This document shows, piece after piece, positions 7,726-31,444 of a stretch of DNA of 64,000 nucleotides (its first letter is position 1; the number at the start of each line of letters is the position of its first letter). A model generated the notes under the pieces. That model was not told the DNA's origin. It saw only the letters and a program-made list of their open reading frames with translations, and ran no database searches. Made by a program: the position numbers and the translations under genes. The stretch is from Candidatus Adamsella avium (GTDB lineage: Bacteria; Cyanobacteriota; Vampirovibrionia; Gastranaerophilales; CAJFVJ01): assembly GCA_904420445.1 (NCBI GenBank), contig CAJFVJ010000003.1, forward strand, positions 255,090-319,089, read 5' to 3'.

Positions 7726-8055
7726 TTAAGCTTTAGGTGTTGCTTTTGGAATAATATTTTTAATTTTGCTACCTAAATTTGACAATTTTTCAGGGATACT
7801 TGTGAAAAATTCACCGACTTTTCTTGCTGTATCACCTACAAACTTTGTAACACTTTTGAAAGTATCAGAAGCAGCAATTTGGTCTAGCAATTGTTTTGCT
7901 TTTCCGCTTTTGACCAAATAAGTACCGCCTGCAACAGCGCCGACTACAGCAACACCTGTAGCAATTTTCTTCGCTGCGGTTGAATGTTTTTTCCTTCCTT
8001 CAAAAGCAAGTGATTTGGGTTCGCATCCTGCACACTGCATTCTCGAAATATTCAT
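7726..8055 (-). CDS. Hypothetical membrane-anchored protein (N-terminal SLAFEGRKK motif, Gly/Ala-rich TM helix)
   Basis: 109 aa with an RBS GGAGG. The TM segment is ATGVAVVGAVAGGTYLV, followed by an amphipathic tail. Confidence 0.55.
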   Translation of the reverse strand: MNISRMQCAGCEPKSLAFEGRKKHSTAAKKIATGVAVVGAVAGGTYLVKSGKAKQLLDQIAASDTFKSVTKFVGDTARKVGEFFTSIPEKLSNLGSKIKNIIPKATPKA

Positions 8056-26347: not shown

Positions 26348-27028
26348 CTACATAACACCTTTTTTTCTTGCTTTTACCAACTCTGCATTTATCATAGCAT
26401 AAATTTTATCGGTATTCCCCATCGACAAATCAAGGAATTTGCACCCCATAACATAAAAAGGAGCTGAATTTTCAAGATTAACCTCATGAATATAAATAGG
26501 TTTTACATGGTTATCAACCTTGATACCCTTATATTCAAAAACAACCTTGTATTCATATTTTTCGCTTATTTCTATATTCGAAACAGTCATCACTGCAATA
26601 CCGTTTGCAGACATGTTGTAGCATTTAAGCTTAAATTTCTTAAACACAGCATTTCTATAAATTATCTGAAACTCCAGAGGAAATGCAAAATCAAGACGGA
26701 CATATTCCCTTCTTTGAACTTTATTCAAAACTTCAGGAAGAGATACAAGAATTCCGTCATTTTCCGTCCCCTCAAAAACTCCGAGAACAGGCACCTCAGC
26801 GCCCCATATACCTGATTTGTTTATAAGAAGAAGCCCGACAACACCGCCGTCTTCTATCGGCAAAACATCTCCATCAGAATCATGTATCAAAGATAAAAAA
26901 ACTTTTTCATTATCACAGGCAATAACACTTGTTTCATACTGATTTTCATCATTCATATAATTTCTGAATAATGAAACCCTCTGACCTTCTTCAAAAAATG
27001 ATTTTATCTTTCTGAAATCATCTATCAT
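26348..27028 (-). CDS. PilZ domain protein (YcgR-like two-domain architecture)
   Basis: 226 aa. It has the c-di-GMP switch motifs QRREYVR and NMSANG (RxxxR ... D/NxSxxG). It sits directly upstream of folP. Confidence 0.7.
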   Translation of the reverse strand: MIDDFRKIKSFFEEGQRVSLFRNYMNDENQYETSVIACDNEKVFLSLIHDSDGDVLPIEDGGVVGLLLINKSGIWGAEVPVLGVFEGTENDGILVSLPEVLNKVQRREYVRLDFAFPLEFQIIYRNAVFKKFKLKCYNMSANGIAVMTVSNIEISEKYEYKVVFEYKGIKVDNHVKPIYIHEVNLENSAPFYVMGCKFLDLSMGNTDKIYAMINAELVKARKKGVM

Positions 27029-27159: not shown

Positions 27160-28065
27160 ATGAATATACTCACTGAAAAGAGAAATAAAAATACAAGAAA
27201 TATAGATATTGAAAATACATCAAAAATATTAGAACTTATCCACAAAGAAGACGAACTAGCCGTGGCTGCTGTTGAAAAATGCCTCAAAAATATAGAAAAA
27301 GCCGTAGATATAATCGTAACAAACTTCAATTCAGGAGGAAAACTATTCTACTTCGGAGCAGGAACAAGCGGGAGACTCGGAGTTCTTGATGCATCAGAAT
27401 GTCCGCCGACATTCGGGGTTTCTCCTCTTATGGTTCAGGGTTTTATTGCAGGCGGAGATAAAGCCTTGAGATACGCAATAGAAGGTGCCGAAGACTCTGA
27501 ACAACTCGCTGAAGAAGATTTTCAAAAAGCAAATCCCTCACCAAAAGACACAATATGCGCTATCTCTGCAAGCGGTAATGCAAAGTACCTCCTGACAATC
27601 CTGAAACTTGCCAGGAACAACCATATCAAAACCATATCAATCTCTTCAAACAAAGATGCCCTGATGAAAGAATATTCTGACTGTTTTATATGCGCAGAAA
27701 CAGGAGAAGAAGCAATCACTGGTTCTACAAGGATGAAAGCAGGCACCGCACAAAAACTAATTCTCAATATGCTCACAACAGCATCTATGATAAAAATCGG
27801 CAAGGTTTATGAAAACCTTATGATTGACGTAAAACCAACAAACATAAAGCTGAAAAAAAGGGCTGTTTCGATAGTAAGCGAGATAGCAAACGTATCTGAA
27901 GAAAACGCTCAAAAAGAACTTGAACACAATGGTTATAAAGTAAAACACGCTATCCTGAAACTAAAATATAACCTCTTTTTTGACGACGCTGATAAACTTT
28001 TAAATGATTTCAACGGGGTATTAAGAAAGGTATTTAATTACCTCGACAACAAAAATAAGATATAA
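27160..28065 (+). CDS. murQ: N-acetylmuramic acid 6-phosphate etherase
   Basis: 301 aa with an SIS domain (GGKLFYFGAGTSGRLGVLDASECPPTFG). Confidence 0.9.
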   Translation: MNILTEKRNKNTRNIDIENTSKILELIHKEDELAVAAVEKCLKNIEKAVDIIVTNFNSGGKLFYFGAGTSGRLGVLDASECPPTFGVSPLMVQGFIAGGDKALRYAIEGAEDSEQLAEEDFQKANPSPKDTICAISASGNAKYLLTILKLARNNHIKTISISSNKDALMKEYSDCFICAETGEEAITGSTRMKAGTAQKLILNMLTTASMIKIGKVYENLMIDVKPTNIKLKKRAVSIVSEIANVSEENAQKELEHNGYKVKHAILKLKYNLFFDDADKLLNDFNGVLRKVFNYLDNKNKI

Positions 28066-28073
28066 TTCTAATT

Positions 28074-29036
28074 ATGAAAGAACTGGTAATCGTAAAAAAT
28101 CTTATAAAACATTTTAATGCCTCAAAAGGTCTGTTCAAACCAAAAACAGAAACAATCTACGCTGTGAATAATATATCTTTCTCTATAAATCAAGGAGAAA
28201 CCCTCTCCCTTGTCGGAGAATCAGGCTGCGGAAAATCAACTGTCGGCAAATGCTTGATAGGTCTTGAAAAACCAACCTCCGGAGAAATCATTATTGATGG
28301 TATAAAGACAACAACATCCACAAAAAAAGATATCAAAGAACTGCGAAAAAAAGTTCAAATAATCTTCCAGAACCCTTACTCAAGCCTGAATCCCAAAATG
28401 ACCGTAGAAGAAATTCTCAAAGAACCTTTTATCATAAATACAAATTTATCCAAAACTGAAATAAAAAAAGAACTCTCAACCCTCCTCGATATTACGGGGC
28501 TTTCAACAAACTTTCTTTCCCGCTACCCGCATGAATTTTCAGGAGGTCAAAGACAAAGAATAGGCATCGCCAGAGCTCTTGCACTCCGTCCTGAATTTAT
28601 CATTGCGGATGAACCTGTAAGCGCACTTGATGTCAGCGTTCAAGCACAAATATTAAACCTTCTTCAGGATCTCAAAAAAGAACTCAAACTCACATACCTC
28701 TTCATCTCTCACGACCTTAGCGTCGTTAACTACATAAGCGACAGAATAGCAGTCATGTACCTCGGAGAAATTGTTGAAACCTCCTCTTCAGATGAAATCA
28801 TCCATCACCCCAAACACCCGTATACAAGAATATTACTCGACTCCGCGCCTCATATAAATAAATCAGGTTCAAAAAAAATTATCCTGAAAGGCGACCTGCC
28901 GAGTCCTCAAAACCTGCCTGACGGTTGCAAATTCCACACAAGATGCCCCATGGCTTTTGATAAATGCAGCTCTATAGAACCTCAGTTCAAACTTCTTGAA
29001 AACAACCACTGCGTCAAATGCCATCTCTATGGCTAA
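28074..29036 (+). CDS. Oligopeptide/dipeptide-type ABC transporter ATP-binding protein (OppF/DppF-like), orphan
   Basis: 320 aa. It has Walker A GESGCGKST, the signature FSGGQRQR and a C-terminal oligopeptide-type extension. No permease or binding protein is nearby. Confidence 0.9.
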   Translation: MKELVIVKNLIKHFNASKGLFKPKTETIYAVNNISFSINQGETLSLVGESGCGKSTVGKCLIGLEKPTSGEIIIDGIKTTTSTKKDIKELRKKVQIIFQNPYSSLNPKMTVEEILKEPFIINTNLSKTEIKKELSTLLDITGLSTNFLSRYPHEFSGGQRQRIGIARALALRPEFIIADEPVSALDVSVQAQILNLLQDLKKELKLTYLFISHDLSVVNYISDRIAVMYLGEIVETSSSDEIIHHPKHPYTRILLDSAPHINKSGSKKIILKGDLPSPQNLPDGCKFHTRCPMAFDKCSSIEPQFKLLENNHCVKCHLYG

Positions 29037-29157
29037 GGGATGAGTTTGTATCAAATTTTTAATATACAAAAAAAATCTAGCAACTTTCCTTATTTTTGTA
29101 TTTAGTAATATTAAAAATAAAAATATGTGTGTGAATACTGGACAAGGAATGCTTAAT

Positions 29158-29469
29158 ATGTCAAATTTATCAATCAGGATGCCCCAACATATTGATAAAC
29201 CCATCAACGTCATGAGCGAAAAAGCCTTAAGAGAAATGGCTTATGAAAAAGGGGCCAAAGCTCTCGAAAGCCTTGGATTACCCGGCGACCTTCTATCTCC
29301 AAACAATTTACAAAAAGCAGAATCATCATCAAAACCTATTTTAAAAAAACTTCTTACCAAAAATAATCTCTTCAACATTGGAAGAATTTCTTTTCTCGGA
29401 GCTACTGCAGCAATCCTTGCAAAATACATATATAATACTTGCCAACAATCAAATAACACGCTATCCTAA
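29158..29469 (+). CDS. Hypothetical tail-anchored membrane protein, paralog A
   Basis: The track ORF is 29125..29469. The start is moved to ATG 29158 (AAGGAA, then 8 nt), so the product begins MSNLSIRMP...INVMSEKA. This aligns with the start of 29569..29868. It has a C-terminal hydrophobic segment. Confidence 0.6.
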   Translation: MSNLSIRMPQHIDKPINVMSEKALREMAYEKGAKALESLGLPGDLLSPNNLQKAESSSKPILKKLLTKNNLFNIGRISFLGATAAILAKYIYNTCQQSNNTLS

Positions 29470-29568
29470 ATATTAAAAAATATTAATCTCTGAAAAAAAT
29501 ATAACAATTTTTTTTATGTTCGTTTTTTAAATATACATCAAATGAAAGAAATATAAGTGGAGGTAAAA

Positions 29569-29868
29569 ATGTCTGATTTAAAAATCAATTTTCCGGTTAA
29601 AGTTCCTCAAGGCTTAAATGTTATGAGCAATGAAGCAAGAACAAAGACCATCCGTGATATAGAATCAAAAGTACTTGATGATATGGGATTGCCAAAGGAT
29701 ACGTTTAGCCAAACAAAAGCTTCAAAATCTAAAGTTTCTCAATTTTTAGAAAACGTGAAAGGAAATAAAATTCTTACAAAAAGAAATGCATTGATTGCTG
29801 CAGGGGTTGCTATCGTTGGTATAGCAGCAGGTGCAATAGCAAAACATATTCACAACAAAAAAGCATAA
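29569..29868 (+). CDS. Hypothetical tail-anchored membrane protein, paralog B
   Basis: The start is ATG 29569 after GGAGG; the track's GTG at 29557 is rejected. The product reads MSDLKINFP...LNVMSNEA...MGLPKD, and ends in the TM anchor ALIAAGVAIVGIAAGAIAKHIHNKKA. Confidence 0.65.
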   Translation: MSDLKINFPVKVPQGLNVMSNEARTKTIRDIESKVLDDMGLPKDTFSQTKASKSKVSQFLENVKGNKILTKRNALIAAGVAIVGIAAGAIAKHIHNKKA

Positions 29869-29891
29869 TTAACTTTTGATAAAAAATACAA

Positions 29892-29925
29892 AAAGCAAGC
29901 TTATTTAAATAAGCTTGCTTTTTTA
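29892..29925 (+). terminator. Rho-independent terminator
   Basis: Palindrome agcaagcttattt / aaataagcttgct, followed by TTTTTT. Confidence 0.8.
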
Positions 29926-30070
29926 TTACAAAATATTAAACTCATAAATCCCCTATTCATAAGCCTTTTATAAATTTTATATACTTTTTAGGCAATCATT
30001 TTAATCAAATTGTTTTTATACAAATATAGGGTTATAGAGTTACTATTATTATTTTTATAGGGGACAAGTT

Positions 30071-31444
30071 ATGACATCAGTAAATGGTTATTCAAATTAT
30101 TCACAAACAGGCATGTATATTCCTTCTTACATGCAAACACCCGGGACAACAACCACAACAACAAACACAACAACTACAACGACTTCTGAGAAAAAAGACG
30201 GAGTAGGAATGGGAACAGTCCTTCTTGCAGGTGCCGCAATTCTTGGAGGTATAATTACCTTTAAAAACGGAGGTCTGAAGAATACCTTCAAACAAATCGG
30301 GAAATTATTCGGCAAAAACGCAGATGACGCAGCCAAAAATCTGAACCTGCTCGAAAAAGGCAAAGCTCTTCTGAAAGGGACAAATCCAAACAAAGGCACT
30401 GACGCAGTAGGAGAAGCTCTTTCTGCAGCAGCAGGGAAAACTGAAAAAGCAAAATGGTCTGAAACCCTGGGCGATATGTACAAAAGTATAAAAAATAAAT
30501 TTACAACAAAATCTAATACTGATGATATAGCTCAAGAAGCAGCAAAAAGAACAGCAAATGAACAGGCAGCAAAAGAATTTGCTGAACAAAGCCAAAAAGA
30601 ATATTTCGGCAGAGTTGACCAAACAACAGGAAAATCCGCCCAAGAAAGTGCAGCTGTTTTCGAAGCAGCAGAAAGAAAAGCCAATAAACAGGCAGCAAAA
30701 GCAGCTGCTGAACAAAGTCAGAAAGAATATTTCGGCATAGTAGACCAAACAACGGGAAAATCCGCTCAAGAAAGCGCAGCAGTATTTGAAGCAGCAGAAA
30801 GAACAGCTAATGAACAGGCAGCAAAAGAATTTGCTGAACAAAGTCAGAAAAAATATTTCGGCATAGTAGACCAAACAACGGGAAAATCCGCTCAAGAAAG
30901 CGCCGATGTATTTAAGGCTAACGATGCAAAAGTTTCTCTACAACACAATAAAGCAGATGCAAAAGAAGCAATCGCAAAATATGGAAAAGATTCTGTGGAA
31001 GGTAAAGAAGCTGCCAGAGACCTTGCTAGAATTGAAGAACTTGAAAATGCACAAAAATCAGCTGATAAAATAGCACAAGAAGCGGCAGAAAGAACAGCCA
31101 ATGAACAAGCAGCAAAAGCAGCAGCAGAACAAAGTCAGAAAGAATATTTCGGCAGAGTAGACCAAACAACAGGAAAATCAGCTAAAGAAAGTGCAGCAGT
31201 ATTTGAAGAAGCTGCCGAAAAAGCAAAAGTGTCTCTCCAACAAAGGAAAACAGAAGCAGAAGCAACAATCGCCCAATATGGCAAAGACTCTATAGAAGGT
31301 AAAGAAGCTGCCAGAGACTTAGTAAAAATAGAAAACGAACTTAAAAACTATACAACAACATCACAACCAACAAATATACAAGAAATACTTGATGAAATTG
31401 CACAGGAAGAACAAATTGCAGACTTAAGACAAGCAGGCAGATAA
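30071..31444 (+). CDS. Repeat-rich membrane-anchored protein (poly-Thr tract, Gly/Ala TM helix, 42-aa repeats)
   Basis: 457 aa. The N-terminus contains TTTTTTNTTTTTT and then the TM segment GMGTVLLAGAAILGGII. There are four copies of R(T/K)AN(E/K)QAAK..AEQSQKEYFG.VDQTTGKSAQESAAVFE and two copies of a second repeat of about 40 aa (KVSLQ...YGKDS.EGKEAARDL). Confidence 0.75.
   Translation: MTSVNGYSNYSQTGMYIPSYMQTPGTTTTTTNTTTTTTSEKKDGVGMGTVLLAGAAILGGIITFKNGGLKNTFKQIGKLFGKNADDAAKNLNLLEKGKALLKGTNPNKGTDAVGEALSAAAGKTEKAKWSETLGDMYKSIKNKFTTKSNTDDIAQEAAKRTANEQAAKEFAEQSQKEYFGRVDQTTGKSAQESAAVFEAAERKANKQAAKAAAEQSQKEYFGIVDQTTGKSAQESAAVFEAAERTANEQAAKEFAEQSQKKYFGIVDQTTGKSAQESADVFKANDAKVSLQHNKADAKEAIAKYGKDSVEGKEAARDLARIEELENAQKSADKIAQEAAERTANEQAAKAAAEQSQKEYFGRVDQTTGKSAKESAAVFEEAAEKAKVSLQQRKTEAEATIAQYGKDSIEGKEAARDLVKIENELKNYTTTSQPTNIQEILDEIAQEEQIADLRQAGR
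30548..30925 (+). repeat. Three tandem 126-bp coding repeats (a fourth dispersed copy at about 31090-31215)
   Basis: The period is 126 nt, read from recurring ...aacaggcagcaaaag...gaatatttcggc... at about 30548, 30674 and 30800. Copies 2 and 3 are nearly identical at the DNA level. Confidence 0.85.

Follow-up and report, generated by a model that had tools for sequence, protein, structure and literature searches.

Genes A and B are two adjacent small genes of an uncultured gut Melainabacterium, Candidatus Adamsella avium (Gastranaerophilales), and lie within a stretch of 64,000 nucleotides of contig CAJFVJ010000003.1 (G+C content 36.6%), which is referred to here as the window. Judged by their alignment, A and B are genuine paralogs, similar well beyond chance, and they make up a true orphan sequence family that is restricted to a very narrow lineage and has a known architecture. 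The explanation that we favour, and which we give an even chance of being right, is that they are transcribed together and encode two small, basic proteins of the inner membrane. Each would have its N-terminal domain in the cytoplasm and be anchored by a helix at the C-terminus, and the helices would probably mediate specific contacts. An earlier note on this DNA, made from the sequence alone, had described the two genes as a pair of tail-anchored paralogs; its coordinates, frames and quoted peptides all proved correct when they were re-read from the sequence (Table 1).

Paralogy, start codons and coding status

The two proteins align from their first residue, as the earlier note had held, with 32% identity over 98 residues in BLASTP (E 2e-13) and an E-value of 1.6e-12 in phmmer, while a six-frame hmmsearch of the window with the family profile found no third member. 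The columns that are invariant across both paralogs (T67, K68, N70, A84, A88, K89, I91 and N93) flank and line the C-terminal helix. Both proteins are basic, with a net charge of +6 for A and +9 for B. Gene B has family members in P0002, P0003 and P0006–P0008, and on the A side there is a divergent orthologue, P0009, which comes from an 80%-identical relative (L004) and is 51% identical to A overall.

The starts at 29158 and 29569, to which the two genes had previously been corrected, are both supported by the relatives. In L004, a TAA closes the frame of gene A eight codons upstream of the ATG (MSSIIS...), and the Shine-Dalgarno (SD)-like sequence AAGAGAAG stands ahead of that ATG, at a position equivalent to the AAGGAA of the window. 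The 11 codons upstream of the ATG of gene A differ at three residues from the family member P0001, whereas the 103 residues downstream are 100% identical to it. Gene B occurs in two main allelic forms, B1, which is that of the window, and B2, found in the relative L001. In B2 the GTG that corresponds to window position 29557 is out of frame (GTGGAGGTAATATGA), and the same is seen in a further relative, L006; both keep the GGAGG and the start codon that follows it, ATG in L001 and ATA in L006. GGAGG is therefore the SD sequence, and ATG 29569 the start, of gene B.

The ratio of non-synonymous to synonymous substitution rates (dN/dS) of gene A against its orthologues is 0.24–0.34, at dS up to 1.6, and that of gene B, comparing B1 with B2, is 0.54, while the neighbouring murQ and ABC genes give 0.06–0.07. 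As these values are well below 1 and above those of the two neighbours, A and B are real genes under purifying selection which evolve fast. AlphaFold2 models of both proteins, built from the family alignments, concur at low confidence in an unstructured stretch of 20 residues at the N-terminus, a helix at residues 21–39, a GLPxD linker and a single long C-terminal helix. For A, the layout is a disordered N-terminus, a helix at 21–38, the linker GLPGD and a long C-terminal helix at 71–101, with a predicted local distance difference test score (pLDDT) of 49.6; for B, helices are placed at 21–39, 54–65 and 71–98 (pLDDT 54.0).

The C-terminal hydrophobic segments

A protein is considered tail-anchored when it has a single transmembrane (TM) domain of adequate length and hydrophobicity that lies no more than about 30 residues from the C-terminus. 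The segments of A and B were assessed by hydrophobicity scales (Kyte-Doolittle, Eisenberg and Hessa), and sliding hydrophobicity scans of the two proteins revealed no N-terminal signal or other hydrophobic segment. The predicted TM helix of B is a Gly/Ala-rich run of 18 uncharged residues bounded by N73 and K92, and is followed by the basic tail KHIHNKKA, which makes up the eight residues to the C-terminus. Its mean Eisenberg hydrophobicity (<H>) is 0.84 with a low hydrophobic moment of 0.10, and the best 17-mer has an additive Hessa sum of -0.58; the tail anchor of Escherichia coli YqjD, which is established by experiment, has an <H> of 0.81, nearly the same. The corresponding segment of A has only 12 uncharged residues (I77–A88), between position 76, which is R, K or E depending on the family member, and the invariant K89; it has an <H> of 0.53–0.60 and an additive Hessa sum of +1.1 to +2.6, and a polar tail of 14 residues follows it. 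The earlier claim of a single hydrophobic helix near each C-terminus thus fares well for B and weakly for A, and the predicted tail-anchored architecture is convincing for B but marginal for A. In E. coli, the hydrophobicity that the C-terminal TM domain of a tail-anchored protein needs for insertion is much lower than that required of an internal TM segment (PMC6794478). A may therefore be anchored despite its modest hydrophobicity, if perhaps only with the help of a partner helix. Since basic residues stand on both sides of the helix (KILTKRN... and ...KHIHNKKA), the positive-inside rule leaves its orientation undecided.

The segment is the best-conserved part of A, with the motif FLG..AAILAKYIYNTC kept in the divergent orthologue P0009, and that of B is identical in all B alleles. 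Indeed, alleles with N-terminal parts of only 23–56% identity do not differ at any of the final 33 residues of B. The flanks of the helix are also shared between the paralogs, with T-K-[RN]-N before it and K-[HY]-I-[HY]-N after it (LTK[RN]N...AK[YH]I[YH]N).

Bacterial tail-anchored proteins, such as DjlC and Flk of E. coli and the synthetic tail-anchored membrane proteins of PMC6794478, have the same arrangement of an N-terminal domain on the inside and a moderately hydrophobic C-terminal TM helix, and a helix of this kind can be inserted after translation (PMC6794478). The likeness to A and B is one of architectural class, with no sequence relationship, and for A and B both the insertion route and the orientation are predicted only.

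Distribution of the family

Profile searches, which had been proposed as a check on the family's distribution, recovered the same narrow clade only. A search of 5.8 billion proteins found eight clusters, and a full HMMER search of 1.84 billion representatives added one divergent A-type member (P0009) and one fragment; in all, the family amounts to fewer than 10 clusters, and a single genus-level clade of Candidatus Gastranaerophilales accounts for every one. The HMMER search also returned two long proteins at E~3e-4, each matched over several stretches and one of them only at profile positions 65–89, which looks like low-complexity matching. Among 185,579 GTDB species genomes a single locus was found, in a metagenome-assembled genome of Candidatus Gastranaerophilales (Melainabacteria), and the JGI metagenomes that were scanned contained two. 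In every relative the locus occupies the same chromosomal position between housekeeping genes, and no mobile-element genes are close by.

Scans of A, B, P0006, P0009 and the repeat protein encoded downstream of B against Pfam, NCBIfam, PHROG and PADLOC gave nothing above threshold, and neither the family profile nor the repeat protein had a significant match among PDB sequences. All PHROG matches were to unrelated families at E>=0.004, and PADLOC gave none, the flanking genes being housekeeping genes without phage or defence context. The sole Pfam model to score for B was CwsA (PF10814), a protein of mycobacterial cell-wall synthesis that is also small and also has a C-terminal TM helix (E 0.009, 16.7 bits, residues 20–96). 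With a gathering threshold of 26.7, this score falls well short, and A, P0006 and P0009 do not match the model, so membership of CwsA was rejected; the Ala-rich composition and the TM helix probably account for the match.

Transcription of the pair

A strong intrinsic terminator follows gene B and none is present between A and B, which makes a single A–B transcript the simplest reading; A and B probably form one operon whose transcript ends at 29890–29923. The earlier note had given each gene its own promoter region. A consensus scan found no promoter-like site on the plus strand in either spacer, which leaves that claim neither confirmed nor excluded. An Rfam scan of 28500–30600 returned sub-threshold matches only, which reflect the terminator hairpin.

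The 200-nucleotide spacer between B and the repeat-protein gene (29869–30070) is almost invariant across lineages. Beyond the hairpin it contains about 145 nucleotides of conserved AT-rich sequence, which could be a promoter or an element of a 5' untranslated region.

An allele mosaic at gene B

The most unusual feature of the locus is a mosaic of alleles. L001, L003 and L006 all have the order ABC ATPase, A, B and repeat protein, and the flanking genes of the window lineage differ from those of these three relatives at a dS of ~0.55, yet gene B of the window is identical to that of L003 but for one codon. In L001 the first two thirds of gene B are replaced, giving allele B2, which has 64% identity to B1. 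P0003 and gene B of L006 are chimeras joined at the common motif MSNEAR, and P0005 is a frameshifted, truncated variant of gene B without the anchor. The dimorphism spans 29569–29790 in the window, 8001–8288 in L001 and 5400–5698 in L006; B1 starts MSDLKINFP... and B2 MKVNSVDKA..., and the flanks are identical.

These cassettes sit within an island of high nucleotide identity (Table 1), whose only interruption is the divergent B cassette of L001 and L006. The island begins in the 3' end of A, a little beyond the anchor segment (29368–29433), and takes in both spacers, the part of B that encodes its anchor and ~45 codons at the start of the repeat-protein gene, which encode its Thr-rich N-terminus; the helix at residues 46–65 of that protein (about 30206–30265) lies just outside it. 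Two readings fit it: a recent tract of recombination between lineages, or strong constraint on conserved segments or regulatory DNA.

The repeat protein and a wider group of Gly/Ala-helix proteins

The product of the next gene, a repeat protein with an N-proximal Gly/Ala helix, may be a partner of A and B. Its gene carries tandem repeats of 126 nucleotides, with 3–3.4 units at 30536–30964 in the window copy, and its homologues are found in the same lineage only. One type of C-terminal repeat is shared by the window, L001 and L006, and an unrelated one is present in L003.

The first ~120 residues of the repeat protein, comprising the Thr-rich tract, the Gly/Ala helix and a basic segment, are retained between lineages. 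In L003 (6911–7954) the C-terminal repeat array has been replaced by an unrelated two-copy repeat, leaving 52% identity overall.

The earlier note had compared the anchors of A and B with helices of the repeat protein and of the protein encoded at 7726–8055. The resemblance stands in composition, a Gly/Ala helix followed by Lys, but in both of those proteins the helix is N-proximal, and homology of A and B to either was rejected for want of any significant BLASTP or phmmer similarity. The Gly/Ala helix and following Lys of these two proteins also resemble the N-terminal motif of YtxH. The helix of 7726–8055 is N-proximal and is followed by LVKSGKAKQ, and this protein has a weak NCBIfam match to GvpT/GvpP (E 0.03) and no Pfam match.

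A more distant relative, L009, in which the PilZ neighbour is 61% identical, has the order ABC ATPase, two small membrane-protein genes (187 and 143 residues) and a homologue of the repeat-protein gene, which matches the N-terminal domain at E 1e-10 to 1e-12. The two proteins in the A/B slot show no significant similarity to A or B by hhalign or BLASTP, although the second helix of the 187-residue protein is followed by LAKLIQNKKA, a 7/10 match to the end of B, IAKHIHNKKA, which is suggestive and was noticed post hoc. The position of the slot is conserved, and its occupants are diverging beyond recognition. As the order is kept in so distant a relative, a linked unit of three genes, A, B and the repeat protein, is plausible. 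The suggestion that these genes form a dedicated envelope or cytoskeletal module thus gains from the recurring gene order, but no evidence points to a role in either the envelope or the cytoskeleton.

The slot proteins of L009 (728–1754, minus strand) each have two Gly/Ala-rich hydrophobic segments, in a ‘hairpin’-like arrangement. Their N-proximal segments end in Y/F-x-K, as do those of 7726–8055 and the repeat protein. There are hints here of a wider, fast-evolving and lineage-specific group of Gly/Ala-helix proteins.

A working model for A and B

In the model that we favour, A and B would be made from one transcript, probably ending at the hairpin downstream of B. B would most likely be a C-tail-anchored inner-membrane protein, with its N-terminal domain of ~70 residues in the cytoplasm and its eight-residue basic tail at or beyond the outer leaflet. 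Such a helix leaves the ribosome only at termination, so insertion would be post-translational, as in the tail-anchored proteins of E. coli. The segment of A is in a range that usually requires a partner helix; A would thus probably be held by packing on B, or on another helix, through small-residue (Gly/Ala) faces. Since conservation is highest in the anchor and the motifs beside it, and the cytoplasmic domains are variable and recombining, the helices are likely to do more than anchor passively and to take part in specific interactions. The pair may then be a membrane-tethered adaptor, perhaps in concert with the N-anchored, coiled-coil repeat protein encoded next to it. The paralogy, the start codons, the coding constraint, the hydrophobic segments, the narrow distribution, the synteny and the mosaic of alleles are shown by the data. 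Membrane insertion, orientation, the association of A with B and the link to the repeat protein are the parts of this model that we infer.

Several observations weigh against it. Membrane insertion of A and B is read from simple hydrophobicity scales, and for A these scales give a short uncharged stretch of 12 residues with a positive Hessa sum. The AlphaFold2 models, with a pLDDT of 50–54 for both proteins, offer no fold-level support. A recent recombination tract, and not selection on the helices, may account for the high conservation of the DNA that encodes the anchors. In L009 the probable counterpart of B, the 187-residue protein, has an acidic tail of 64 residues after the helix and an extra N-proximal hydrophobic segment; with that many residues behind the helix, a tail-anchor topology is not conserved in the wider group. 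The link to the repeat protein is affected in two ways: synteny within so narrow a clade is weak evidence for functional linkage, and the alleles of B and of the repeat protein assort independently between strains, which argues against tight co-evolution of their variable parts.

Alternative explanations

It is unlikely, in our view, that the C-terminal helices are not TM helices at all and serve instead as glycine-zipper-like oligomerisation elements, or as peripheral membrane-binding helices, of soluble stress proteins or of proteins like those of the late embryogenesis abundant (LEA) or YtxH type. The segment of A is short and broken by a charged residue, and Ala/Gly-rich helices are only moderately hydrophobic. 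In 7726–8055, the repeat protein and both slot proteins of L009, moreover, the Gly/Ala segments with their Y/F-x-K are N-proximal, which recalls YtxH and GvpP. Proteins of the YtxH/GvpP type, however, have a Gly/Ala-rich helix at the N-terminus followed by amphipathic helices, whereas the helix of A and B is C-terminal, and no match to YtxH or to any glycine-zipper family was found in Pfam. The 18 uncharged residues of B, with their high <H> and low moment, describe a membrane-spanning and not an amphipathic helix, and charged residues stand on both sides of the segment, as for a membrane span.

A bolder version of the favoured model, which we regard as decidedly unlikely, would unite A, B and the repeat protein in a Melainabacteria-specific membrane complex, built on three near-invariant Gly/Ala helices, in which the parts facing the cytoplasm (the N-terminal domain of B and the repeat array) are swapped between species as cassettes. 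Such a complex could be a membrane module of variable specificity that is new to science, or a non-homologous replacement for the ribosome-tethering proteins of the DUF883 class in a phylum without them.

That class provides the closest known parallel. YqjD, ElaB and YgaM are C-tail-anchored proteins of about 100 residues, with a Gly-rich TM helix and basic residues, which tether and inactivate ribosomes (bioRxiv 10.1101/2024.08.16.608256). E. coli has three such paralogs with 34–42% identity, and the class has more than 9,000 members, so the earlier statement that bacterial tail-anchored proteins are rare was an overstatement (bioRxiv 10.1101/2024.08.16.608256). A and B could be non-homologous functional analogues of these proteins, acting in stress or stationary phase, with the basic N-terminal domain tethering and silencing ribosomes, although we hold this to be highly improbable. 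The likeness lies in size (99–103 residues, against 101) and predicted layout, with no signal peptide, a helical N-terminal part and, at the very C-terminus, a single Gly-containing TM helix with basic residues behind it. It extends to the presence of several paralogs per genome at 30–40% identity (32% between A and B), to the near-identical hydrophobicity of the B and YqjD anchors and to the strongly basic character of A and B. Neither Melainabacteria nor Cyanobacteria are among the phyla listed for DUF883 (bioRxiv 10.1101/2024.08.16.608256), so that an analogue could fill the niche there.

Homology to DUF883 (Pfam PF05957/PF19029, InterPro IPR010279), on the other hand, was rejected. A Pfam hmmscan gave no DUF883 match for A or B (E<=1) or for P0006 or P0009 (E<=10), and hhalign of the family alignment against YqjD and ElaB of E. 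coli MG1655 returned a probability of 0.9%. The marks of the class, a conserved Pro-Trp where the TM helix begins, in which the Pro breaks the helix, and a terminal RR or RK (bioRxiv 10.1101/2024.08.16.608256), are both absent from A and B, which also differ in being more basic, in having hypervariable N-terminal domains and in being encoded by adjacent genes. Hypervariable, recombining domains would be unexpected in a binder of the conserved ribosomal tunnel exit. On these comparisons, A and B are not DUF883 members; they have in common with that class an architecture and, possibly, a logic.

No more probable than ribosome tethering is a system of conflict or variable specificity, in which B, alone or with A, would be a small membrane-active effector, such as a holin, a toxin or an immunity-type protein, with a specificity domain under diversifying selection. 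The mosaic is what recommends it: two very different B alleles within near-identical DNA, the MSNEAR chimeras, an identical B1 in lineages whose flanking genes have diverged, replaced alleles of the repeat protein too, and a C-terminal glycine-rich TM helix with a basic tail, a combination that many holins and small toxins have. Contrary evidence comes from the lack of any PADLOC or PHROG match, the fixed position between housekeeping genes away from mobile-element genes, and a dN/dS that is below 1 throughout; the ATA start in L006 and the truncated P0005 suggest that B is dispensable and not addictive.

Finally, it is barely credible that A and B are spurious, non-functional open reading frames whose similarity is a remnant of a duplicated non-coding segment, as their small size without a database family, the low AlphaFold confidence and the AT-rich surroundings might suggest: this reading is largely refuted by coding constraint (dN/dS well below 1 even at the highest dS), A being open in at least three species-level lineages and B in several alleles, with SD motifs conserved at the right distance, a terminator after B and an A–B protein similarity that exceeds expectation from the DNA.

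Significance

Tail-anchored proteins of the size of A and B are an already known and widespread class, and what is new here is the sequence family. If A and B are indeed membrane-anchored, they are an independent family that enlarges the small number of C-tail-anchored proteins in bacteria, and one that comes from an uncultured gut phylum whose cell biology has hardly been studied by experiment. The combination of an invariant anchor with recombining cytoplasmic domains would then offer a test case for roles of tail anchors beyond tethering and for the evolution of small orphan membrane proteins. The practical value at present lies in the corrected start codons and in better annotation of Gastranaerophilales.

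Features and neighbouring genes

Table 1. Features of the A/B locus and its surroundings, in positions of the window
Feature	Position	Strand	Basis or remarks
109-residue protein	7726-8055	-	Gly/Ala-rich helix at residues ~32-48
PilZ-like gene and folP		-	near A and B in the table of open reading frames
murQ	27160-28065	+	
OppF-type ABC ATPase	28074-29036	+	upstream of gene A
SD-like AAGGAA of gene A	29144-29149	+	8 nt before ATG 29158; kept in L001 and L003
Gene A, 103 residues	29158-29469 (including stop)	+	open reading frame, paralogy to B, dN/dS
C-terminal hydrophobic segment of A, residues 71-92, LFNIGRISFLGATAAILAKYIY	29368-29433	+	hydrophobicity scores, conservation
High-identity island	29450-30200		96-100% nucleotide identity against a background of 85-90%; sliding-window identity and alignments
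A-B spacer, 99 nt	29470-29568	+	AT-rich, without terminator, almost invariant between lineages
SD GGAGG of gene B	29559-29563	+	5 nt before ATG 29569; kept in both B alleles
Gene B (allele B1), 99 residues	29569-29868 (including stop)	+	open reading frame, paralogy to A, homologues
Predicted tail-anchor TM helix of B, A74-A91, ALIAAGVAIVGIAAGAIA	29788-29841	+	Hessa, Eisenberg
Intrinsic terminator hairpin, 15-bp stem then T-run	29890-29923		strong; kept in L001, L003 and L006
Repeat protein, 457 residues	30071-31444	+	Thr-rich N-terminus, Gly/Ala helix 46-65 (N-proximal anchor), coiled-coil-like C-terminal part
Nucleotidyl-transferase		-	after the repeat protein 30071-31444

A metagenome contig from JGI/ENA (L005) matches the window with 98.8% identity across 10.3 kb. 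The PilZ-like gene (26348–27028, minus strand) encodes a divergent YcgR-like PilZ protein of 226 residues, which scores 20.5 bits for PilZ and 17.4 bits for PilZNR, both just below the gathering scores. It is represented by only five clusters in the collection of 5.8 billion proteins, and is thus another lineage-restricted gene of this neighbourhood.

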